Shown in pieces: positions 3,545 to 23,945 of a DNA stretch of 27,742 nt; position 1 is the first letter of the stretch, and each line of letters begins with the position of its first letter. The position numbers and the translations under genes are program-made. The notes below the pieces were generated by a model that was given only the letters and a program-made list of their open reading frames with translations, was not told the DNA's origin and ran no database searches. The DNA lies in the UHGV virus genome UHGV-0038079, one strand, 5' to 3'. The stretch comes from a virus.

Positions 3545-4459
3545 TCAGTAGTTATGTACTGAAGGAGGTAATTCTTTATTCTTAAGTCTCATCCATGCGG
3601 AAAGATTCGTTGGTCCGTCTGGCTCATTGATATCAACATCTCGTGTGTGATTGATTAAAACGTCTCTCGCCATTCCGATAACATACGAGAATTCATGACC
3701 GTAGTCGTAGCATCTGCCGGAATAGTTCGATTGAATTTGTTTTAATGCCGGATACAGTTCGCGGAATAATGCCTGTGAGCGGTTGGCATAATCCCATAAC
3801 CATACAAGGCTGTTTGCTTCTTTTGCAGAAAACTCGTTTACTTTCTTCTCTTGTTTGCCAATGAACTCACCTTCAAGTGGAACTCGAGCTGCAAGTGACA
3901 GTGCTTCTGTAAACTGCTCCTCACTGATTTCTTTGTACGAACAGCCAAAATGAGATTTCAGTGACGACCACATGGTGATCATCGCCTTCGCCTGTTTTTC
4001 TTTTGGCAGAGACTGACCGCGACTCATGACGAGTTGTTTAATAGCTTCCTGCTGTTCAGTGGTGATTTTACCAGGCAACGCCTTTTTAGCTTTCGGTGTA
4101 TTTCCGTAAGACCCCGTTTTACGAATGGATGGCAAAACTTCAGCTGTTACCCATTTGCGGAATTTGTGCGGGACTGAACCTTTATTGACGGCATCACGGC
4201 AGCGCAGAACCAATGTATACATACCTGATTCGCTCACAATGCTTAAATTCTGCTCACCACCAAGGGTGTAACTTAAAGTTACTCCCTTCTCATCGTCATC
4301 AAGTGCAGTAAGCGCCTTGCGTGAGTTAGTCAGGGCTAAAGCATCACAAACATCTTTTGCTACAAACCACGGCTCGCCGCACTTGTTGATGACGCGGATT
4401 TCACTGTCGCCGAATTTGAAGATGGTGAAATCGTTTTGTGCCTTTGCTATACTTTTCAT
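3545..4459 (-). CDS. ant: Antirepressor Ant (P22 immI Ant-like), 304 aa
   Basis: Antirepressor-like N-terminal domain ([33 protein letters not shown]); lies directly downstream of an Arc-like gene, as in P22 immI. Confidence 0.75.
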
Positions 4460-4532
4460 GTCAATATTTCCCGATCAGATTTGTTGATGTAGAAGCCTCG
4501 CCAGTTCCCGCTGTCGGGGCTTCGTTATTTTT
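4460..4532 (+). ncRNA. Predicted sar-like antisense RNA covering the ant start region and arc-ant spacer
   Basis: Plus-strand extended -10 TGcTATACT (4445..4453) just inside the ant 5' end; plus-strand hairpin GAAGCC...GGCTTC (4493..4523) followed by GTTATTTTT; same topology as P22 sar. Confidence 0.4.
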
Positions 4533-4692
4533 AGAGAGCATTCCGCATTTTCTCCCGGTACTTCAACCACCAAGCTAATCCTTGAACCAACACTGAGTTT
4601 TCTGACATTCCCTCTTCCTCTGCAATGCGCTTAACTTCTTCCTTAAAGCGGTACGGGTAGCGAAGAGTTGTCTTTACTTCATTCTTTTCCAT
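4531..4692 (-). CDS. arc: Arc-like ribbon-helix-helix repressor, 53 aa (below the ORF-track size cutoff)
   Basis: Hand translation MEKNEVKTTLRYPYRFKEEVKRIAEEEGMSENSVLVQGLAWWLKYREKMRNAL; same length and RHH pattern as P22 Arc (LRWPREV...ENGRSVNSEIYQRV). Confidence 0.7.
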   Translation of the reverse strand: MEKNEVKTTLRYPYRFKEEVKRIAEEEGMSENSVLVQGLAWWLKYREKMRNAL

Positions 4693-4799
4693 GCTGTCTC
4701 CTTATTTCACAATGAAGGCAAATTGCCTTTAGAGTCAATTTACCATGATTGCACATGAAGTCAAGTTGCCTCTACAATGATTTTTATTTGAGGTGAGTT
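4693..4799. promoter_or_regulatory. Divergent promoter/operator region (Pant-like leftward, Pmnt-like rightward)
   Basis: Plus-strand -35 TTGCAC (4749..4754), 18-bp spacer, -10 TACAAT (4773..4778), SD GAGGTGAG before mnt ATG 4800; minus-strand -35 TTGACT; perfect 15-bp palindrome AAGGCAAATTGCCTT at 4715..4729. Confidence 0.5.
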
Positions 4800-5123
4800 A
4801 TGTCAGAAAAATTTCCCAGCCAAATGCAAGACAAGTTCACCGTGAGGTTTCCTGACGGATTGCGCGATGCTATAGCTGAACGAGCTAAACGTAATGGCAG
4901 ATCAATGAACTCAGAGATTGTGCAGATACTGGAAGATGCCTTGAATGCAGAAAATACTCTTGGGGAAATAGCAGATAAAATTAACAGCGTCTCGGTTCCG
5001 CTAAATGTTGATGCGCTAGTTCAACTTCAAGCCCAGGTTATCGCCATGCAAAAAGAAATACAGGAAAAGTTCAGAGAGCAGAACGAAAAGTTGAGAGAAC
5101 TGCTAAACAAAAAACCCACCTGA
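4800..5123 (+). CDS. mnt: Mnt-like ribbon-helix-helix repressor, 107 aa
   Basis: N-terminus FTVRFPDGLRDAIAERAKRNGRSMNSEIVQILEDAL matches the Arc/Mnt fold motif (P22 Mnt ...ANGRSMNSELLQIVQDAL); divergent from arc. Confidence 0.75.
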   Translation: MSEKFPSQMQDKFTVRFPDGLRDAIAERAKRNGRSMNSEIVQILEDALNAENTLGEIADKINSVSVPLNVDALVQLQAQVIAMQKEIQEKFREQNEKLRELLNKKPT

Positions 5124-5132
5124 CGGTGGGTT
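5104..5132 (-). terminator. Intrinsic terminator downstream of the secreted-protein gene (overlaps the mnt stop codon)
   Basis: Minus-strand AACCCACC-GTCA-GGTGGGTT hairpin followed by TTTTTTGTTT. Confidence 0.5.
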
Positions 5133-5147
5133 ACGGAGAGGGCAAGA

Positions 5148-5483
5148 TCATTTAACCTTTCGGCAATCGTACGTCCAAAATTCCCGAGGCTCGTCCATAT
5201 TTTTGCGGATAACTTCAACGTTGAGGATCGCTTTTTTGTTTCGTTTGATGTAGTCCATACCTAACCAACGTCCAGTATTAGGATCAGGTAACATCCATTG
5301 CATCATGACGTTATCGAAATCGTCTTTTTGTTTCAAAAAGGTCATTTTTTGTGTTTCTGGCTTTTGACCATTGATGTGCATGAGGCCATCATTACCAGCA
5401 TCAAAGCGGAATGGTCCGCACTGCGTTGCCGCCGAAACGGTTAACGGCAGGGCCAAGAATAAACAAAAAAATACTTTTTTCAC
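5148..5483 (-). CDS. Small secreted protein of unknown function, 111 aa (GTG start)
   Basis: N-terminal signal peptide MKKVFFCLFLALPLTVSA-ATQ; SD GGAG 9 nt upstream of GTG; start overlaps the stop of the upstream baseplate gene; own terminator. Confidence 0.6.
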   Translation of the reverse strand: MKKVFFCLFLALPLTVSAATQCGPFRFDAGNDGLMHINGQKPETQKMTFLKQKDDFDNVMMQWMLPDPNTGRWLGMDYIKRNKKAILNVEVIRKNMDEPREFWTYDCRKVK

Positions 5484-6514
5484 TCTACATCTCCGACTTT
5501 GTCCAAAGTGCCTTTTGCCAATAGTTCTTTGCCACCTTTAGCCAGGCAAAGCAGGTCCATATACCACGCCTGCCCTCGGGTGTCGCCAGTATAATCAATG
5601 CTGCCCACAATGTAATCACCGTCAGTACTAATACTGGCAGGCTGTGACATGCCTGGCAGACCGTTAACGTAGAGATTACCGTCGCTTTCAGACTCATCCA
5701 GTCGTGCTGGCGATTTCGCTACCTGGTCATTACTCAAAGAGGCACGGTATACAGATGCCTGATCCAGACGAATAAGCCCACCGAGCTTAATATTTGGATT
5801 AATCAGACATCTGACATTTACGCCAGCTCCCATCGTCTGCTGTGGCATACCGATAAGCCCGGTGTTAGCATTCAACACCGTAGCAACACCAATATATTTA
5901 TCTTCAGGAACAATATTTACCAGATTATTTTCATACCACCAGTTAGCCTTACACTGCCCTGCGATATGATTCATCAACCTTGATGTGTTTTGATAAACAA
6001 CGCGCCCCCGGGGAAATACCGTTTCAGGCATGTCAGGAACTGCGCCGGATTCGATGCCATATGGTTCGAATGATTTCATACCCAGACTGAAAAGATCTCT
6101 GTACTTCCAGCCAGCTGCCACTGTGGTTTTCACACTTGCGTTCAGGTGGCCTTCCCAGCTGTCAATACACTGCAACATGATCCAACTGTCTGTGGCATTA
6201 TCTTTACCAGTGACAGTAAAACGGATATCTCCATTGAATATCATGCCAACGTTTTCATCAGGATAATTACCTGCTACATCCGGTTGCCCCTTGTATCCGG
6301 CAATAACCTGTATACGCGAAAACTCCTTCTGCATAATCCGGTTCTGAGTGGTAGGAGACAGGTTATAAACCTTAAAATTTCCAACGAATCCATTAAATAT
6401 GGTCGCAGGCATTTTCTGAATATTGAAAGTGACTTTAAGCTCAGAAATTTTTATCCCGTCGCCCTTATCATCAACAAGCAATAATTCAAAGTGACGCATC
6501 CAGTTTTTCGACAT
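5480..6514 (-). CDS. Baseplate hub-like tail protein, 344 aa
   Basis: ORF track; position between tape-measure-proximal genes and the spike; assignment by synteny only. Confidence 0.45.
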   Translation of the reverse strand: MSKNWMRHFELLLVDDKGDGIKISELKVTFNIQKMPATIFNGFVGNFKVYNLSPTTQNRIMQKEFSRIQVIAGYKGQPDVAGNYPDENVGMIFNGDIRFTVTGKDNATDSWIMLQCIDSWEGHLNASVKTTVAAGWKYRDLFSLGMKSFEPYGIESGAVPDMPETVFPRGRVVYQNTSRLMNHIAGQCKANWWYENNLVNIVPEDKYIGVATVLNANTGLIGMPQQTMGAGVNVRCLINPNIKLGGLIRLDQASVYRASLSNDQVAKSPARLDESESDGNLYVNGLPGMSQPASISTDGDYIVGSIDYTGDTRGQAWYMDLLCLAKGGKELLAKGTLDKVGDVE

Positions 6515-6516
6515 TG

Positions 6517-6819
6517 TTACTCCGTGAAAACATAGAGGTGTGAGAGCGTTCCAAGATCGAATTGCGTCGGGTTTTCCTGCCCTGCCACGTCGCAGAGTAC
6601 CACCAGCGAAAACCCGAGATTCATATATCGATACTGCGCCAGCAGGTCAGCCCCCGTAATCATCGGAATGCCTGAGATAATGGCGGAACCATTGCTGTCA
6701 GCAAGATCCAGAACCCAGTACTCTCCGCGCCAGATGACAGACAGTTGATAAACCGTACCGTTAATTGTGGTGGCAAAAGTCTGATTATCAGCCACCAGTG
6801 GGATTTCTACGGCCTCCAT
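6517..6819 (-). CDS. Tail/baseplate protein, 100 aa
   Basis: ORF track; tightly packed in the tail operon. Confidence 0.4.
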   Translation of the reverse strand: MEAVEIPLVADNQTFATTINGTVYQLSVIWRGEYWVLDLADSNGSAIISGIPMITGADLLAQYRYMNLGFSLVVLCDVAGQENPTQFDLGTLSHLYVFTE

Positions 6820-6822
6820 GAA

Positions 6823-7473
6823 TCACCTTCCCAGAAATAAATTGCTCAGATACCCATCAACAGTGGAGATACCTTCTTGCGCCATCTGTGGCAGCGATTT
6901 CAGAATGGAATTATTCGGCGGCACCGTTGTTTTGGTGCCTGTATTCTGCACAGCAGACGTTCCGACCCCCTCGGTCATATTGTTTTTCGAGGCAACCCTG
7001 ATTGACTGCGTGGAGGTAATAATCACCTCCCTGAGGGTAAGGGTCGCCAGAAGCACATTCTCACTACTCTTGTCAGTCGTCACCTCCAGCGTTTTTATCA
7101 ACATATTGTTGTAAATACGCTTGCCGGTTGTCACATCGAAAGGAATACGATCCCGCTGCAGATTAAGCAACTCCTGATACAGTTCTTTCGGGCTCAGACC
7201 CAGTAAACTGGTAGCCGTCAGGTTACTGGCAAAATCAAGCAGCGATCCGCCTCCGGAAAAACCGGTTTCCATCACAACCTCAGAAGGCCGCCTGAATGCG
7301 TGTTCTGATATATAACCAGCGCCCTCACCACTGGCACCAGCATTCGTGGGCTGTTCAACCGGATGTTCCGTAATTTCCAGGGCGTCAGTGTGCTTTTCGG
7401 TAATAACCACATCAGGAATAATGATTCCTATTGAGCGGGTTCGCTGCTGCAGTAAAACAGATAAAAAGTCCAT
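6823..7473 (-). CDS. Tail/baseplate protein, 216 aa
   Basis: ORF track; start overlaps the stop of the upstream gene. Confidence 0.4.
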   Translation of the reverse strand: MDFLSVLLQQRTRSIGIIIPDVVITEKHTDALEITEHPVEQPTNAGASGEGAGYISEHAFRRPSEVVMETGFSGGGSLLDFASNLTATSLLGLSPKELYQELLNLQRDRIPFDVTTGKRIYNNMLIKTLEVTTDKSSENVLLATLTLREVIITSTQSIRVASKNNMTEGVGTSAVQNTGTKTTVPPNNSILKSLPQMAQEGISTVDGYLSNLFLGR

Positions 7474-8084
7474 TACGCAGGTCCTTTCAATTGCTGTACC
7501 GCCCTGGCATTTACAGCCCCCTGCTTGTCAGCGATCAGATTAGCCGCCTCCTGAGGGTTGTTAACTCCATGAACATTTATAACAGTCTGCTGGTTAAGGC
7601 TGCCAGCGGCGGCCTGATACGCCAGCGGGCTGTTCCAGTTTGAATAACCTTCTTTGCGCGCCATCGACTGCATCAATGCTCCCATAGTCTGGGGATCTGT
7701 AAGATTCAATATTGCATTCGGTGATACTCCCATCCATTTCGCAACATCCTGTGCATACTTTTTCGGATCGTTGTTATCACCTGCCGGGGCCCAGGTACTG
7801 ACAATATCCTGAATAGTCTGTAATGCCCGTCCGGTTGTTTTCCCGGTAAAGTAACGCATGAGTTGGTTTTTCATCGCCTCCCAGCCCTCAAGAGCTGATT
7901 CGAAAAACCGGAACCCTTTACCGCTCACCGGGCGAATGTTCCCGGGGTTATTGTTGCGATCAGCAAGAGTACCGCCGCCGGGGATGTCTGCCTGGACGTT
8001 GGAGCCATGCACTACACCGTTACTCTGTCCCTGCCGGATAACTTTACCGGGTCCCCGTGCAACCAGTCCATCCACGCAGGCCAT
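7473..8084 (-). CDS. Tail protein downstream of tape measure, 203 aa
   Basis: ORF track; GAGG SD 9 nt upstream of ATG 8084; 5' end overlaps the tape-measure 3' end by 73 nt. Confidence 0.4.
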   Translation of the reverse strand: MACVDGLVARGPGKVIRQGQSNGVVHGSNVQADIPGGGTLADRNNNPGNIRPVSGKGFRFFESALEGWEAMKNQLMRYFTGKTTGRALQTIQDIVSTWAPAGDNNDPKKYAQDVAKWMGVSPNAILNLTDPQTMGALMQSMARKEGYSNWNSPLAYQAAAGSLNQQTVINVHGVNNPQEAANLIADKQGAVNARAVQQLKGPA

Positions 8085-9478
8085 TCACGGACCTCACTGA
8101 CATCCCTGCGTCCGATATCTGTTTTTATACCAATAGCAGCCAGCGTGTCGCCGATAATTCGCTTCGTATACCTCAGTGAAGATTTTGCGCTATCGGCAAT
8201 ATTTTCTCTGTCACTAACAATATAACCCGCGTAAAGCGCCCACAATTTAAGCCAGGGTGGGACCGGCAAACCAGATATTTTCCCGAAAGCCCCCAGAACC
8301 TTGGATACCCAGACACCCGCGATGAATGTACCGAGGATTTCCAATGATTTTTGCCAGCCGCCAACACCATCTTTTAGTTCCAGAAGGTGATCACGAAGCC
8401 AGGTGATCGCATCCTTCGCTTTATCTATTGCCGGTTGCCATTTTTCCCAGTCGATAAGGCTGTTACCGCCTTCTTTCCATGTTTTGTAGTCTTCCCACAA
8501 GAGACCGAGAGCCACGATCAGACCAGTAATCAGCCCTATAGGTGACATCCAGAAAGTAGAGTTAAGTATCCGCATGGCGACAACCAGACCGCCGATAACC
8601 TCTATCAGGGTTTTCGTTTCGGCATCCAGTTTCCCCCACCACTCGATGATATCTCCGACACCATCGACTATCCGAAATGCAACCCGCCCGACTATCTCAC
8701 CCAGCCAGAGGATCCCCTTTATGACCTTTGTGATGGTGACTTCAATTTTGGGAAAATTTTCAATTATCTTTTTGCGCAGGTTATCAATCTGCCCCGCCAG
8801 TCCGTCCGCAAGATTCGATCCGATTTTGTCCCGCGCCATCCCGGCCATTTCACCGAGCGATTTCAGCGAGGTCATAAACCGGTTTGACGATAAGGCAGCC
8901 TGATCGGCATTAAATCCGATCGCTTTCACCATTTCTGAATACTGAGCGCTGAACTGCCCCACTCCGCGACGCATAGCCATCAGGGTATTTTCGTCAATGC
9001 CCAGCATCTGCGCATACTGGTTAGCCCGGTAATACGGCATGCCGCTGAGTTTCTGTCCAACGCCCGTAAAGATAGCGGCCATGTCACGCATGTTACCGCT
9101 GGCATCACGGGTCTGTACGCCCAGGCGATTCAGAAAGCCTTCTGCTCCGGGATTGTTACGAATAAACCGGGAGAGGTTTTCCAGAGAAGATCGCGCAGCG
9201 TCCACGCTGCCGCCAACCTGCGAAACCGCATAGCCAATAGACTGAATTCCCTGGACTGTCGCGCCGGTGCGCTGTGACGCCCAGTAAAGATTATCCAGGC
9301 CGGAGGCGATCTTAGCCGTGAAGGCCACCACGGACAGCGCAGCTCCTTCAACAGCCAGCCCCATTTTGATGACATTTGCAGTTGTACCGGCGAGGACAGA
9401 ACCGAATTTTTTCGCTCCTGCATCATCCACACTGAAGCCAAGCGAGACGAGGAAATCTTTAATAGTCTCGGCGTTCAT
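8012..9478 (-). CDS. Tail tape measure protein, about 488 aa
   Basis: Long protein with a hydrophobic central segment downstream of the tail chaperone; start moved to ATG 9478 (MNAETIKDF, SD GAGAGAGGA) instead of the track start 9499. Confidence 0.65.
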   Translation of the reverse strand: MNAETIKDFLVSLGFSVDDAGAKKFGSVLAGTTANVIKMGLAVEGAALSVVAFTAKIASGLDNLYWASQRTGATVQGIQSIGYAVSQVGGSVDAARSSLENLSRFIRNNPGAEGFLNRLGVQTRDASGNMRDMAAIFTGVGQKLSGMPYYRANQYAQMLGIDENTLMAMRRGVGQFSAQYSEMVKAIGFNADQAALSSNRFMTSLKSLGEMAGMARDKIGSNLADGLAGQIDNLRKKIIENFPKIEVTITKVIKGILWLGEIVGRVAFRIVDGVGDIIEWWGKLDAETKTLIEVIGGLVVAMRILNSTFWMSPIGLITGLIVALGLLWEDYKTWKEGGNSLIDWEKWQPAIDKAKDAITWLRDHLLELKDGVGGWQKSLEILGTFIAGVWVSKVLGAFGKISGLPVPPWLKLWALYAGYIVSDRENIADSAKSSLRYTKRIIGDTLAAIGIKTDIGRRDVSEVREWPAWMDWLHGDPVKLSGRDRVTV

Positions 9479-9713
9479 TATCCTCTCTCCATTTCTCAAT
9501 GCGCCGCTGGTTATCCGCTTTTACCGCCAGATGGTCATTCAAGAGAGCAATATCGTACAAATCGACAGAGCCATCTTTAAGTGCTGTATAAGGAATTAAC
9601 CCGGCATCAACCGGGTCAAGGAGATAAGACAGCCCGTCAGGCAGGCTGTTGAGGGTTAGCCCTGAAGCTGGTCCGGCGTCGCGCTGGTAGGGATCACGGG
9701 CAAAAAATTTCCC
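9459..9713 (-). other. Predicted -1 programmed frameshift site and C-terminal extension of the tail assembly chaperone (G/GT-like)
   Basis: Minus-strand run G GGA AAT TTT TTG (plus 9701..9713) near the 3' end of the chaperone ORF; the -1 frame stays open for about 80 codons across the chaperone-TMP spacer and stops at 9461..9459, just inside the TMP start. Confidence 0.55.
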
Positions 9714-10108
9714 AGCGAATCGGCGACCACCCGCGCCACCAGCTGCAGCATGACCAGCAGGTCAATATCATCAAACATCAGTTCGCCCTGGGTAAATACC
9801 GGCACCCATCCGTCCATATGACGCCGCAATACCACCGCAAGACAGGGATGAATAATCGCGTTGGTGTCTTCTTCGGTCAGGGAAGACAGTTCCTCAGCGA
9901 TACGCGGGAGCATGGTTTCAAACACCGGTTTTAACTGCTCGAATTTCACGGTGTCGATTTTGCCGTCAGCAGGCAAACGGGAGCGAATGCTCCCGAAATC
10001 TGACATCATTCCCGCCAGTACCGGCAGAAGTTTGAGGGTCACTTTCAGTTGGTCAAAAACGCTGAGTTTTGCCACGCGATATTTCACGCCTTTGATTTCG
10101 AATTCCAT
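9656..10108 (-). CDS. Tail assembly chaperone, 150 aa
   Basis: ORF between tail tube and tape measure; acidic; carries the slippery site near its 3' end. Confidence 0.6.
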   Translation of the reverse strand: MEFEIKGVKYRVAKLSVFDQLKVTLKLLPVLAGMMSDFGSIRSRLPADGKIDTVKFEQLKPVFETMLPRIAEELSSLTEEDTNAIIHPCLAVVLRRHMDGWVPVFTQGELMFDDIDLLVMLQLVARVVADSLGNFLPVIPTSATPDQLQG

Positions 10109-10111
10109 GTA

Positions 10112-10552
10112 TTAAAACTCCCCGAGAACCTGGTCAATCTTGCCGCAGTCAAACACCCACGGCATCGTATTACCGGTTTTAGCGTTGGCGTTATCCGGTT
10201 GTTTCTGGAACGCAACACTGCGTGCCGTGATGATGTCGCCGCTGACCTTGTTGCGGATCACGATAACGTTATTCCCCCATGTTGCAGAAGACTGGCTCTG
10301 TGCGTTATACGCCAGCGACAATTTTTTATTTGTCGGTGATGTCTTCAGAAGGTTAACGGTAATCGTCCCGCTTTTATCTGCATGGAGGCTGTGCATCACT
10401 TCGCCATCAGCACCGATGGTCATGGTGTTTTTAGGACCGCCCATCGCAACCACAATCCCCTCCTCAGAACTTGCCGAACCGTACCCGAGGTCAATCGAAC
10501 CGGTCGGCCCGGTCAGCGTCGCAGTGACATCCATAAAAGAATAGGTAGACAT
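10112..10552 (-). CDS. Tail tube protein, 146 aa
   Basis: Small protein immediately downstream of the sheath gene; conserved sheath-tube order. Confidence 0.6.
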   Translation of the reverse strand: MSTYSFMDVTATLTGPTGSIDLGYGSASSEEGIVVAMGGPKNTMTIGADGEVMHSLHADKSGTITVNLLKTSPTNKKLSLAYNAQSQSSATWGNNVIVIRNKVSGDIITARSVAFQKQPDNANAKTGNTMPWVFDCGKIDQVLGEF

Positions 10553-20229: not shown

Positions 20230-20781
20230 TTAGCCCATCATTTTTCTATACGCCTCTGCAGCCTGCTCCGGAGTTAAGTTGGTAATTTCTGTTCTGACTG
20301 GTCCTCCATCAGCGCCAGTCACTTCATTTTTGACGTTGTCTTTAAACGCCTGAACAGAAACATGACGCCCAAGCAACTCAAGGTTTTTAACCTTATCAGG
20401 CCATTTGATTTTCTTCAGGAGTGCGGCGCTATCTGCGGATGCCATCTCCACGACATCCATTCCCGATAACGTTGTGCGCCATACCTTAGGCCAGTCTTTA
20501 ATGGGTTTTAGCTCACCGTTTTGCAGGAGAATGTCAAGCACATCCATCTGGTCGATTTCAATAAGGCGATTAAGTACATATTCTGCATTAATACCAACAA
20601 GATCATTGCGTTGTGCTTTCAGTTCGGCGATTCTTAACTTGATGTCAGGTTTTGACAGGTTTTCGGATGCGGTACGGTTAGCTGTCTTTGCGCTGTACCC
20701 CGCCCGAATAGCCGCTTGCGTGGCGTTTAAATCGATGAGGTACTCGCGACAGAACATTTCTTGCTTGTCGGTGAGTGCCAT
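20230..20781 (-). CDS. Terminase small subunit, 183 aa
   Basis: N-terminus [30 protein letters not shown] is a typical small-terminase DNA-binding motif. Confidence 0.8.
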
Positions 20782-20803
20782 AAATTACCTTTAAGGATTT
20801 CAC

Positions 20804-21022
20804 ATGAGTGATGAATACAAACAGAAAATCGGCATTCCAGATGACCATACACTGGAGCTTGTCTCTTCTAACTGGAAAGGAGCTCGAAAAGGTCAGGATA
20901 CCGATGAATACCTTTACCGTGAGTTGGACACTGCGGGAAATGTAGTGGCCACTTATGAAATTAAAGATTCAACTTCTATATATCCACCATTCGGAAGATC
21001 TATCTCTTATAAGAAGGTCTAA
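20804..21022 (+). CDS. Hypothetical protein, 72 aa, divergent from the terminase operon
   Basis: SD AAGGA 7 nt upstream of ATG 20804; plus-strand gene embedded in a minus-strand operon; no family recognised. Confidence 0.5.
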   Translation: MSDEYKQKIGIPDDHTLELVSSNWKGARKGQDTDEYLYRELDTAGNVVATYEIKDSTSIYPPFGRSISYKKV

Positions 21023-21355
21023 GCAACCAGCTGACCAGCATGGCATTTCCGATTGAACATTTACACGTCCAGGATAATGCCATGTCTATTCCACAGTTCT
21101 ATCGTCACCTACCGATATTGGCGTGAACTACACGCACTTGACATCAGCAGGAGCGAAGTACGCCCCCTCCCGTCTAGGTCGCCAGCGGCACAAAGCCATT
21201 AACCAGCTCAGGCTGACGTCGTGACATCTTGCCCGTTTACTCGCCGCCGTCGTTCGTATTCAGTTTGATGATGTAGATGTCGGACATTGAGATCCTCTTT
21301 ATCCGCTTGTGGGGATATCAGTTAAGTTATCCCGTGTAGGGTATAAGCCATTATC

Positions 21356-21381
21356 AAAGCCATTCTGCAAGGAATGGCTTT
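21356..21381. terminator. Strong 10-bp stem hairpin, possible weak or bidirectional terminator
   Basis: AAAGCCATTC-TGCAAG-GAATGGCTTT; flanked by only short T stretches. Confidence 0.4.
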
Positions 21382-21411
21382 TGTGATGGCAATAAAAACA
21401 GCCGCAGGAGG

Positions 21412-21660
21412 TTAGATTAAGTCTTCACGTTTTACATATTCATCGATGTGATAAAGATGCATAAACTTTTCATCATGCCCACCAAATATCTGTGTTATCG
21501 ATTCGTCATCCCGGCCTTCAACAATTAAATGCTTTTCATGTGTTCCCGGCATAAATAACGCCCTTACAACATGTTCTAAGTGGTGTTTGAACTGTATGTG
21601 AAGCTCTCTTTCATCCTCAAAAGGAATATTTTCGGTAAGTTCAAAATAACGAAATGCCAT
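21412..21660 (-). CDS. Hypothetical His- and acid-rich protein, 82 aa
   Basis: SD GGGAGG 6 nt upstream of ATG 21660; own promoter-like region with palindromes; 9 His in 82 residues. Confidence 0.55.
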   Translation of the reverse strand: MAFRYFELTENIPFEDERELHIQFKHHLEHVVRALFMPGTHEKHLIVEGRDDESITQIFGGHDEKFMHLYHIDEYVKREDLI

Positions 21661-21686
21661 ATCTACCTCCCGTATAATGAGAGCTC

Positions 21687-21715
21687 ATCATTAATGAATT
21701 TTCTTGTCATGACAA
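21687..21715 (-). promoter_or_regulatory. Predicted promoter of the 82-aa gene with overlapping palindromic operator-like sites
   Basis: Minus-strand -35 TTGTCA, 17-bp spacer, -10 AATGAT; perfect 12-bp palindrome TTGTCATGACAA (plus 21704..21715) over the -35; near-palindrome TAATGAGAGCTCATCATTA (plus 21673..21691) over the -10/start region. Confidence 0.35.
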
Positions 21716-21911
21716 TGACAAATTATTTCAGGTTCCATTAGATATAGCTTTGTAATGAACAGGCACTTATCTCAACGCAGCCCCTTACCGCGCGCCAGAT
21801 GCTCAACTTCAAGCATCAGCAATGAGATGTTTAATCTGGATTCACTCCAGAAGTAATCACCACCCTGTCTACAGAGCCAGATGTGAAGAATGATGAGTAA
21901 AATTATCGCTA

Positions 21912-22379
21912 TCATCGAAGGCATTGCATCCTGATGTATTCCTGAAGCGCTCTCAGTGCTGTTTGGTCGCGGATAATTCCGTCCCGGATACCGAGAACGT
22001 TTCGTCCAGCACTTGGAGAGAGTTCGACGGTGGCATCATTGCCCATGCCGGAGGCGCTGGAGGTTTCGGCTGAGGATGGCACAGGGGATTTTCCTTTGAC
22101 GAGCACCCTGCCACCATCATCAAGCTTGCGCCGAAGAGCATCATTTTCAGCTTTCGCATCAGCTAACTCCTTCGTGTATTTAGCATCGAGTGCATCAGCA
22201 TCACGCTGGCGCTGCTGCATGTCAGTAATGGTGGCGTTCGCCTTCTCCAGTTCACTGGCCTTGTTATCGCGCTGCTCTTTGTAGGCGATTGCGTTATCAC
22301 GGTAATGATTAACAGCCCATGACAGGCAGACGATGATGCAGATAACCAGAGCGGAGATAATCGCGGTTACTCTGTTCAT
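21912..22379 (-). CDS. Rz: Rz i-spanin
   Basis: N-terminal TM helix ([23 protein letters not shown]) then coiled-coil; ATG 22379 overlaps the endolysin stop (ATGA). Confidence 0.8.
21953..22159 (-). CDS. Rz1: Rz1 o-spanin, embedded in Rz in the +1 frame
   Basis: Lipoprotein signal with lipobox ([16 protein letters not shown]) followed by a proline-rich segment; entirely inside Rz. Confidence 0.75.
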
Positions 22380-22873
22380 TGCTGACCCCACAAACAGATT
22401 TCACGCTCAATCTCACGACGAGTCATGAGACCTTTCCATTGCTTACCGCCAGCATATGTCCAGCGACGTAGCTGATCACATGCGCCTTTGATATCGCCCT
22501 GGTTTATTTTGCGAAGAAGCGTCGATGTTCTGAAATTGCCAGCACCCACGTTGTAAATGAATGAGTAAAGAGCGCCGCGCGTTGTTTCCGGTATATCGAC
22601 TTTGATGTACGGGTTAATTTGTCTGGCGACAGTGGCAAGATCTTTATTCAGGAGGGCTTTGCATTCTGCTTCGGTATACGTTTTACCGAGCATGATGTCT
22701 TTTCCGGTGTGTCCGTGACATACAGTCCATACGCCAACGATATCTTTGTATGGTATGTAGCTGACACCTTCCAGGCCATCGTCACCACTCGGACCAGTGA
22801 TGAGCACAGACGCTATGGCAACAGCCCCACCACCAATAGCAGCAGCAACAGCCTTGCGTAATGATGGCGACAT
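22376..22873 (-). CDS. R: SAR endolysin (phage 21 R-type lysozyme), 165 aa
   Basis: N-terminal signal-anchor-release segment [18 protein letters not shown] followed by a lysozyme domain; very close to the phage 21 R sequence as recalled. Confidence 0.9.
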
Positions 22874-23206: not shown

Positions 23207-23282
23207 TGGTGCTGGTTAACGGACTTGACCCGCTACCAATTCGCTTACAAGGCGACCGCTCTACCATTGGAGCTAAACCAGC
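23207..23282 (-). tRNA. tRNA, anticodon UGU (Thr-like), 76 nt with encoded CCA
   Basis: Hand-folded cloverleaf: 7-bp acceptor stem GCTGGTT/AACCAGC, D arm GCTC-CAATGGTA-GAGC, anticodon loop CTTGTAA, discriminator A + CCA; T loop GTCAAGT has G at position 54 (non-canonical). Confidence 0.6.
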
Positions 23283-23287
23283 ATGTT

Positions 23288-23362
23288 TGGCGGGACAGCG
23301 TGGACTCGAACCACGATAAGAAGGTTAACAGCCTTCCGTAATGACCTTTATACGACTGACCC
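23288..23362 (-). tRNA. tRNA, anticodon GUU (Asn-like), 75 nt with encoded CCA
   Basis: Hand-folded cloverleaf: canonical T arm CGTGG-TTCGAGT-CCACG, anticodon arm GAAGG-CTGTTAA-CCTTC, acceptor GGGTCAG/CTGTCCC with one T:T mismatch, discriminator G + CCA. Confidence 0.6.
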
Positions 23363-23419: not shown

Positions 23420-23449
23420 ATTATGGCTAAATGGATAATTGCATGTCAA
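23420..23449 (-). promoter_or_regulatory. PR'-like late promoter (presumed Q target)
   Basis: Minus-strand perfect -35 TTGACA (plus 23444..23449, inside the last Q codons), 18-bp spacer, -10 CATAAT (plus 23420..23425). Confidence 0.5.
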
Positions 23450-23945
23450 GGCTTTTAACAGCAACATGCTTAACTTTCTCAACACGTTTACGCATTTTGA
23501 AAGCATTTTGCATTGGCTGGTACAAAACAAATAACGACGCTTTCAGGATGTCGTCAATTTCGTTTCTACAGGTTGCCAGTGAAGGTTTTCTCCATCCCTC
23601 GCCACCACGTCCACACATCTTGCGTGGCTTTGCAGTCGCGTGATAGTAGGATGCAATTGCTCGCTTAGATGAACCATGAGCGTAGTAGCTGAGGAGGATG
23701 CCAAAGGCTTTCTTGTCAATGTACATGACGGAATCGACGACCTGAGAAATCAACATTCCATCATCATCATTACACATTGGCCTTGTCATAACTCTTCCCG
23801 GCTCTACGCTCTCCATGAACTTCGCTATTACGCTGCTCATGCGCTTTTCCAGACGACCTGAATAAACCCATGCGCCCCACAGTTCAAGCCAGCCATTCAG
23901 CCACTCGTGCTGCTCTTTGGTGAGGTTTAGTTCTCTTATGCTCAT
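23427..23945 (-). CDS. Q: Late-gene antiterminator Q (phage 21/82-type family), 172 aa
   Basis: Position between ninH and the late promoter/lysis genes; motif WGAW...RPMCNDDDGMLI...LSYY as recalled for non-lambda Q families. Confidence 0.7.
   Translation of the reverse strand: MSIRELNLTKEQHEWLNGWLELWGAWVYSGRLEKRMSSVIAKFMESVEPGRVMTRPMCNDDDGMLISQVVDSVMYIDKKAFGILLSYYAHGSSKRAIASYYHATAKPRKMCGRGGEGWRKPSLATCRNEIDDILKASLFVLYQPMQNAFKMRKRVEKVKHVAVKSLDMQLSI

Follow-up and report, generated by a model that had tools for sequence, protein, structure and literature searches.

What is encoded in the 1.1 kb that separates the lysis genes from the terminase genes of a lambdoid prophage, and do the small genes found there make up an undescribed genetic system? 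This question is raised by positions 20782-21911 of UHGV virus genome UHGV-0038079, a stretch of 27,742 nt that we refer to in its entirety as the window. A preliminary description had singled out this interval as the window's leading candidate for such a system, consisting of two small genes, of 72 and 82 amino acids (aa), and the DNA between them. We propose instead, with a probability of roughly 80%, that the interval is the usual variable slot in which lambdoid/P22-like prophages carry accessory ("moron") genes, flanked by the lysis cassette and the packaging genes; that it was assembled by recombination at short conserved boundary blocks; and that its four units are functionally independent and do not make up one system. 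As sequence the finding is real; as biology it is ordinary.

The window is a lambdoid Escherichia coli prophage in which the genes from cII through the tail fibre genes all lie on the minus strand. Along that strand, Q (23427-23945), two tRNA genes, holin, lysozyme and Rz/Rz1 lead up to the interval, which is followed by the small terminase subunit (TerS), a 540-aa large subunit (TerL) and a DUF1073 portal. Both borders of the interval are confirmed by Pfam matches: TerS on the left (20230-20781, minus strand; Terminase_2, E 7e-40) and the Rz i-spanin on the right (21912-22391, minus strand; Phage_lysis, E 2e-28), with Rz1 embedded at 21953-22159. A near-identical prophage (99.6%) in strain QML220601 has been annotated with the Prokaryotic Genome Annotation Pipeline (PGAP), which labels the left border gene "terminase small subunit"; within the 28-kb stretch used for comparison, the sole plus-strand coding sequence (CDS) in the PGAP list is the 72-aa gene.

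The suggestion that this position is a cargo slot is well supported, since related phages and prophages hold wholly different genes there. These include Sf6 genes 66/67/68, Rha, KilA-N, a PP2C fragment, GIY-YIG and DUF2441; further occupants of the homologous slot are YlcI/YnfO with DUF1398, YodC/DUF2158 with DUF6953, a HolE-like protein and IS1. The same slot holds Sf6 genes 65-68, the HK620 hkbM/hkbN region and the P22-like "post-Rz" genes. Comparison with Sf6 is particularly instructive: the window has a homologue of gene 65 (the 50-aa gene described below), and its hairpin-containing block is 90% identical to one that lies between genes 66 and 67 of Sf6, whereas the place of gene 66 is taken by the cassette that carries the 82-aa gene, and where Sf6 has genes 67 (DUF2560) and 68 the window has a phrog_6581 pseudogene and, on the plus strand, the 72-aa gene. 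The terminase module of Sf6 also differs from that of the window (Terminase_2, 540-aa TerL, DUF1073 portal). A PADLOC scan of other slot occupants (DUF2158, DUF6953, Sf6 gp66 and gp67, and a 161-aa neighbour) gave no match. We also observed that opposite-strand small genes recur in the Rz-TerS slot of five of our comparison loci (L004, L010, L012, L013 and L014), namely YodC/DUF2158, DUF6953 and a 78-aa open reading frame (ORF), and that in this set of prophages the slot contains a HolE-like DNA_pol3_theta gene on the late strand; no member of this recurring set matches PADLOC.

The contents of the interval were assembled from two modules with separate distributions. The left module (20700-21414), which comprises the TerS start, the 72-aa gene, the pseudogene and the hairpin block, is 98-99% identical in E. 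coli prophages whose lysis-side cargo is Rha, or KilA-N together with a PP2C fragment. The right module (21312-21948), comprising the hairpin block, the 82-aa gene, gene 65 and the end of Rz, is found, at 94-97.5% identity, in other E. coli genomes without a 72-aa gene; in Sf6/epsilon34-type phages, similarity to this module is confined to its two ends, i.e. the hairpin block and the gene-65 block. Because the two ranges of similarity overlap at the hairpin block alone (21312-21414), we regard this block as the recombination joint. In ordinary lambdoid prophages, such as those of O157:H7 86-24 and ST648 (loci L070 and L071), the gene-65 block and the hairpin block lie ~27-30 bp apart, with unrelated packaging modules behind them. 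The same distance in the window is ~345 bp, the extra DNA (~21399-21748) being the 82-aa gene and its upstream region, and the point at which this cassette is inserted is also used by Sf6 gene 66. The locus is a textbook case of lambdoid prophages shuffling cargo at conserved boundary blocks, with no new system.

The joint is a conserved intergenic block of ~90 bp (21312-21403) that is terminator-like in both directions. It contains a hairpin with 19-nt arms at 21347-21390 (-27.7 kcal/mol and z = -5.6 against shuffled sequences on the plus strand; -21.5 kcal/mol and z = -3.1 on the minus strand). The preliminary description was correct in reporting a hairpin here, but the hairpin is not specific to this locus: the block is found in 2293 of 5426 complete E. 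coli genomes, i.e. more than 40%, at 2993 places, and 111 phage records also contain it. In those E. coli genomes it is never called as a gene, and the homologous site in phage Ayreon is labelled "terminator". Its usual place is ~30 bp downstream of a gene-65-like ORF, and the terminases behind it are unrelated, including lambda Nu1/NohD, DUF1441 and P22-like types. At a relaxed threshold (E <= 1), the only Rfam match in the interval was a sub-threshold hit of a miRNA model to the hairpin (E 0.026; 24 bits, with a gathering score of 59), which we take to be due to chance. The block behaves as a module boundary and putative terminator, and by marking the junction after the lysis cassette it could help to delimit cargo slots automatically.

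The 82-aa gene (21412-21660, minus strand; phrog_35226, E 3e-55) lies in the ~345-bp insertion (21399-21748, minus strand), which consists of a promoter-like site, the ORF and a degenerate short terminator. Morons, a concept due to Hendrix and Juhala and exemplified by lambda bor and lom, are a familiar feature of lambdoid phages. The cassette resembles them in its insertion site, in its lower GC content, in the promoter-like site before the gene and in the terminator-like hairpins behind it. The gene is inserted between elements that are otherwise adjacent (~345 bp versus ~27-30 bp), and its base composition is deviant, with a GC content of 38-39% over 21300-21800 compared to 51-54% in Rz and 50-53% over the pseudogene. 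Judged by these sequence features, namely insertion, deviant GC content, and promoter and terminator motifs, the cassette has the structure of a putative moron. The characterised moron products differ from both the 72-aa and the 82-aa protein, to which they have no sequence or fold relation.

A consensus scan places a sigma-70 promoter-like site, TTGTCA-17-AATGAT, upstream of the 82-aa gene (21715-21687, minus strand; 9/12 match). A site of the form TTGNCN-17-(A/G)ATGAT or GAATAT keeps its position in 11 of 12 divergent loci of the 82-aa family despite diverged flanks, and in several of these loci a terminator-like hairpin lies before it. Relatives of the gene have a canonical GC stem and T-run right after the stop codon; in the window this stem has degenerated, and the large hairpin comes after it. 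Such a promoter would allow production of the 82-aa protein in the lysogen, and Q-antiterminated late transcription would presumably also read through the gene. The palindrome TTGTCATGACAA overlaps the -35 element of this site. Given the His-rich product, we considered it as an operator, such as a metal-regulator box, and dropped it as a feature of the family: it is present in E. coli-type copies only and absent from Serratia, Scandinavium and most other loci. At 21695-21730 the hexamers TTGTCA TTGTCA TGACAA form a direct repeat and then a palindrome over the -35 element, which may be a lineage-specific operator or chance.

The His-rich character of the 82-aa protein is as first described: nine of its 82 residues are histidines, with a net charge of -8.7 and a pI of 5.3, and at least 90% of 29 family members keep H21, H27 and H30, three residues of helix 1. 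The family comprises 33 clusters at 90% identity, and those named for an organism are all from Enterobacterales except for one Acinetobacter metagenome-assembled genome. In 18 further loci the gene lies, wherever flanks could be identified, between lysis genes and terminase on the late strand, next to four types of terminase. The AlphaFold2 model (predicted local distance difference test score, pLDDT, 85.4) is a ferredoxin-like beta-alpha-beta-beta-alpha-beta fold, and Foldseek matched it to no viral structure at E <= 0.001. The model shares its order of elements with small ferredoxin-like proteins (GhoS, Cas2/VapD, ACT and NikR C-terminal domains), with which it aligns over 60-72 residues. 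Tentatively, its likeliest mode of action would be the binding of a metal or a partner protein, with a role as a known enzyme less probable.

Between the 72-aa and 82-aa genes lie 389 bp (21023-21411) without an ORF longer than 60 aa, which the preliminary description took for structured non-coding DNA. The absence of longer ORFs and the hairpin are both real; the DNA, however, is no dedicated RNA or DNA element but consists of a pseudogene and the ubiquitous terminator-like block. The pseudogene (21090-21300, minus strand) belongs to phrog_6581. It keeps a ribosome-binding site (RBS), AAAGAGGA, at 21300-21293 and an ATG at 21287-21285, and a sensitive DNA search matched 21109-21346 to Enterobacter phages CobraSix and ENT1 within coding sequence. 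The intact protein is 67-72 aa long (phrog_6581, E 1e-35), and a 67-aa copy occupies the same slot in E. coli 210205630. Relative to the intact copies of E. coli 210205630, CobraSix and ENT1, to which it is 85-87% identical at the nucleotide level, the window copy, the only one in which lesions were read, has three stop codons (TAC to TAA at 21239-21237, GAG to TAG at 21176-21174 and CAG to TAG at 21130-21128) and a 2-nt deletion that break the frame. It reads MSDIYIIKLNTNDGGE up to the first stop, and homology runs on past the second stop, the 2-nt deletion and the third stop. Most of the gap is a gene killed by three stop codons and a frameshift. Copies at least 95% identical occur in 16 complete E. 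coli genomes, and among those listed no minus-strand gene is annotated over the copy; the copies in the other 53 matching E. coli genomes are ~72-90% identical and mostly annotated as encoding a hypothetical protein.

Two public annotations at homologues of the dead gene deserve mention. The 161-aa CDS of CobraSix gp73 (locus L006, 4-489) is probably over-extended: homologues, including those of ENT1, E. coli 210205630 and the window, start at an internal MSD(T/I)YIIKL with a good RBS, giving ~72 aa. In E. coli DETEC-P80 (locus L015, 2084-2251, plus strand), PGAP has placed a 55-aa "hypothetical protein" (WP_187767215.1) across the pseudogene, which is likely a spurious antisense ORF. A 9-bp inverted repeat, CATGGCATT and AATGCCATG, 28 nt apart (21039-21084), lies between the 72-aa gene and the dead gene with no U-tract after it; its predicted fold (-19 kcal/mol, z = -2.6) is of uncertain significance. 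Other inverted and direct repeats in the interval are 9-16 nt long, a length that the repeat tool flags as often due to chance.

The 72-aa gene (20804-21022, plus strand) is divergent from TerS and, as first reported, opposite in orientation to all flanking genes. It starts 22 bp from the TerS start. Sixteen E. coli genomes, Pantoea and Cronobacter phage phiES15 likewise have the gene as a companion of the TerS module, at a distance of 21-22 bp; other prophages have it at a different point of the slot, next to further small genes that are also on the opposite strand (DUF2158/YodC, DUF6953). Prophage copies are always on the strand opposite to the late operon. The copy in phiES15 (NC_018454.1; locus L072, 2104-2322), a UV-inducible phage, is intact, lies 21 bp from the TerS start and is unannotated in the public record. 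On the strand opposite to the late operon, the gene could not belong to the late transcript, and we would therefore expect a promoter of its own to drive it in the lysogen, and antisense late transcription to silence it once the prophage is induced. A candidate extended -10 element, TGcCATAAA, can be read over the TerS start codon (20776-20784, plus strand), and is a tentative assignment. In a different prophage context (locus L012), the copy of the gene, again opposite to the late operon, has its own promoter-like site, TTGAAA-17-TACATT, and a canonical terminator, features that it shares with lambdoid morons.

The 72-aa family has 26 close clusters, and a full HMMER profile search extended it to 116 representatives at 50% identity. 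The most common genomic context of this family is not a prophage. In 24 of the 31 loci from GTDB species representatives, the gene is found in the fixed order hsdS(half)-DUF2188-72-aa gene-hsdM...hsdS-hsdR, i.e. inside a type I restriction-modification (R-M) locus. Cassettes of this kind (L022-L043, L050, L051, L011 and L019; locus coordinates ~4050-10200) are shared by more than 12 genera of mostly marine Gammaproteobacteria, and HsdM is 86-91% identical across genera, which implies recent horizontal spread of the R-M cassette. The copies in the R-M loci lie ~10 bp downstream of the DUF2188 gene and encode proteins 54-66% identical to the 72-aa protein. Variable cargo is found further downstream in the cassette, with SLATT and SMODS in L019 and Bro-N in L011. 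The DUF2188 partner matches the PADLOC candidate PDC-S16 (E 3e-29), so that relatives of the 72-aa protein stand next to PDC-S16, between hsdS and hsdM; the 72-aa family itself has no PADLOC entry. According to a passage in a bioRxiv preprint (10.1101/2022.04.27.489752), DUF2188 was predicted to be defence-linked by Burroughs and Aravind (2020).

Two other loci of the family adjoin what, on our own reading of the integrase sequence, are IntI-like integrases; in these loci (L027, 2194-5213; L047, 3343-5213) the gene lies a few cassettes from the IntI-like tyrosine recombinase and appears to be an integron gene cassette. The remaining identified context among the 31 is a single terminase-adjacent prophage locus. 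In fusion proteins, the domain is found at the C-terminal end of PIN_8 nucleases or, in others, behind a Zn-ribbon. We set aside profile matches in proteins of 2016 aa and 6416 aa, each with several short stretches, which we assume to be partial matches of repeat type; an 843-aa match shows MucBP repeats by Pfam scan. We also considered whether DUF2188 and the 72-aa family are tandem paralogues, and saw no obvious resemblance on reading both alignments. The arrangement with DUF2188 upstream and hsdM downstream does not occur in the window, where the neighbours are TerS and the pseudogene, and neither R-M nor DUF2188 genes are found in the PGAP annotation of the near-identical 28-kb prophage stretch.

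The invariant residues of the 72-aa family fall in two motifs, RKGQDTD and DSTSxYPPFGR. The model of the 72-aa protein (pLDDT 85) has an N-terminal helix followed by four long antiparallel strands, and, going by the predicted strand order, the motifs would be located at and around two of its hairpin turns, beta1-beta2 and beta3-beta4, both at one end of the meander sheet. The fold is predicted to be cystatin/NTF2-like, resembling small binding proteins such as protease inhibitors, immunity proteins and the NTF2-like anti-CRISPR 7jta, with which the protein has 5-15% identity. The cystatin QxVxG motif, by contrast, is not visible in the family alignment, and there is no profile match to any PDB sequence, such that neither a sequence profile nor a QxVxG loop places the protein in the cystatin superfamily. 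The protein is cytoplasmic, it has no signal peptide and no cysteines, and its only PHROGs match is non-significant (E 0.2).

Given that relatives of the 72-aa protein occur in R-M/DUF2188 loci, next to integrases and fused to PIN nucleases, we think that the protein is most likely a small protein-binding modulator in phage-host or mobile-element conflict, which could act in defence, anti-restriction or regulation. A more specific version of this proposal is that the protein is a stand-alone version of a mobile, as yet undescribed conflict-system domain, made in the lysogen, that would modulate a host or incoming nuclease or restriction complex, either as superinfection defence or in Ral-like alleviation; this is a tentative suggestion, and we put its chances well below even. 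Lambda Ral and Rac Lar are small (~65-aa) prophage-encoded restriction-alleviation proteins that act on type I R-M enzymes, and they are encoded in the early region. The likeness is one of analogy only: the 72-aa protein is also small and prophage-encoded, and its family most often sits inside type I R-M loci, whereas its gene is located in the lysis-terminase slot, not in the early region. The residual novelty of the locus is the recurrent link of this family to type I R-M/DUF2188, integron-type integrases and PIN nucleases, which suggests a role in phage-host conflict. Being small, well conserved and widely mobile, the family offers a cheap, testable candidate for an R-M accessory or anti-restriction factor.

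Neither small protein fits a characterised family, because the fold resemblances of both are to very common scaffolds. This agrees with the preliminary description, which had recognised no family for either: scans of the small proteins of the interval against Pfam, NCBIfam and PADLOC gave no match, and PHROGs yielded families of unknown function only. Even at E <= 1, PADLOC-DB v2 had no match for the 72-aa, 82-aa or 50-aa proteins or for the restored product of the pseudogene. Structure prediction gave models for both proteins (pLDDT 85), but the folds are generic, and profile searches of both families against PDB sequences returned nothing significant.

Several observations weigh against our interpretation of the interval as a moron slot. 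Promoter and terminator assignments in the interval are putative, made at the level of motifs only. A strict terminator scan of the interval made no call, the hairpin having no run of five Ts, and in the window the consensus scan detected nothing on the plus strand that could serve the 72-aa gene as a promoter. The promoter attributed to the 82-aa gene in the preliminary description holds as a promoter-like site of conserved position, but the same scan yielded one site where shuffled sequence gave a mean of 2.7, i.e. fewer than expected. The fold matches, to very common folds with modest Z scores (5.5 and 7.8), carry little information on function. The window contains neither a DUF2188 gene nor a PIN gene; the link of the 72-aa family to defence islands comes from relatives that are 58-67% identical and is guilt by association, and its function here may differ. 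Lastly, the constant position of the 82-aa gene right after the spanin gene on the late strand would fit a late lysis or assembly accessory role equally well.

This last possibility, in which the 82-aa protein would be produced along with the spanins as a late-operon accessory that serves lysis or head assembly at the envelope or the packaging machinery, is the most probable of the alternatives, although we think it unlikely. It would account for the recurrence of the gene between lysis genes and terminases of four types, and Q-modified polymerase would be expected to read through it, as in lambdoid late transcription generally. Most phages with the same Rz/gene-65 module nevertheless do without the gene, which occurs in 10 of 5426 complete E. 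coli genomes compared to 2634 that match part of a 1.3-kb query, mostly on the Rz/gene-65 side; moreover, the gene has its own conserved promoter-like site and a low GC content, and the protein has neither a signal peptide nor a hydrophobic segment. We consider it improbable that the gap is a functional non-coding element, be it a small RNA, a regulatory structure, or a cos or pac site used by the adjacent terminase. In its favour, the hairpin is strong (z = -5.6), its block is extremely widespread while unannotated, and cos sites of lambda-type phages lie just upstream of TerS. However, 21090-21300 aligns codon for codon with an intact gene, with RBS and ATG kept, from which it differs by stops and a 2-nt deletion; no Rfam family reaches its gathering score in the gap; and the hairpin block precedes unrelated terminases, and so is not a terminase-specific recognition site. 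A cos/pac site was also suggested by the position of the homologous CobraSix DNA at the end of a linear record, a candidate that we rejected since this DNA belongs to an annotated CDS and TerS is merely where the record begins.

That the two genes and the intervening DNA form a single undescribed system, for example a defence or toxin-antitoxin pair, is very improbable. The genes are adjacent in the window, in three complete E. coli genomes and in one IMG/VR contig, and both families are orphans. Yet when we checked the co-occurrence of the pair across prophages, the genes were mostly apart: of the 5426 complete genomes, 10 carry the 82-aa gene and 16 the 72-aa gene, such that seven of the former and 13 of the latter lack the partner, and the 72-aa gene is present in only one of 16 IMG/VR loci with the 82-aa family and absent from the other 15. 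The genes belong to different recombination modules, they are convergent rather than operonic, a dead gene and a terminator-like block lie in the 389 bp that separate them, and there is no PADLOC match. The co-occurrence counts largely refute the two-gene system. We give still less credence to the idea that one or both ORFs are non-functional leftovers, i.e. chance or decaying ORFs in a defective prophage's junk DNA. It is true that few E. coli genomes carry either family, and a neighbouring gene in the same slot has decayed, but both proteins have confidently predicted folds (pLDDT 85) and are conserved at full length across genera, down to 56-58% identity, and an intact copy of the 72-aa family is present in the inducible phage phiES15. 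Lack of both conservation and expression had been named beforehand as an outcome that would count against the genes; conservation was found for both, with a dN/dS of 0.07-0.16 for the 82-aa family against divergent members, and a proportion of nonsynonymous differences (pN) of 0.07-0.34 compared to 0.68-1.0 for synonymous differences (pS) in the 72-aa family. Both ORFs are real genes under strong purifying selection, and a slot filled with unconnected cargo remains our preferred reading of the interval.

The interval also contains a third small gene, overlooked in the preliminary description, which had counted two. This 50-aa gene (21772-21924, minus strand; phrog_11822, E 6e-37) belongs to the Sf6 gene 65 family, and its homologues are annotated as CDSs in Sf6, epsilon34 and Ayreon and by PGAP. 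The hydropathy profile of the protein shows a single N-terminal hydrophobic helix. The start of the gene overlaps the stop of Rz, the overlap being 13 nt, and this membrane protein, a possible accessory of the lysis cassette, would probably be co-translated with the lysis genes. A gene of this type is very common directly after Rz in lambdoid prophages.

At the other end of the lysis cassette, the two tRNA genes between Q and holin (23210-23362, minus strand) are the only matches to Rfam 15 at gathering score in the whole window, and carry the labels tRNA-Asn and tRNA-Thr in near-identical records. The arrangement agrees with that of Sf6 and phage 21.

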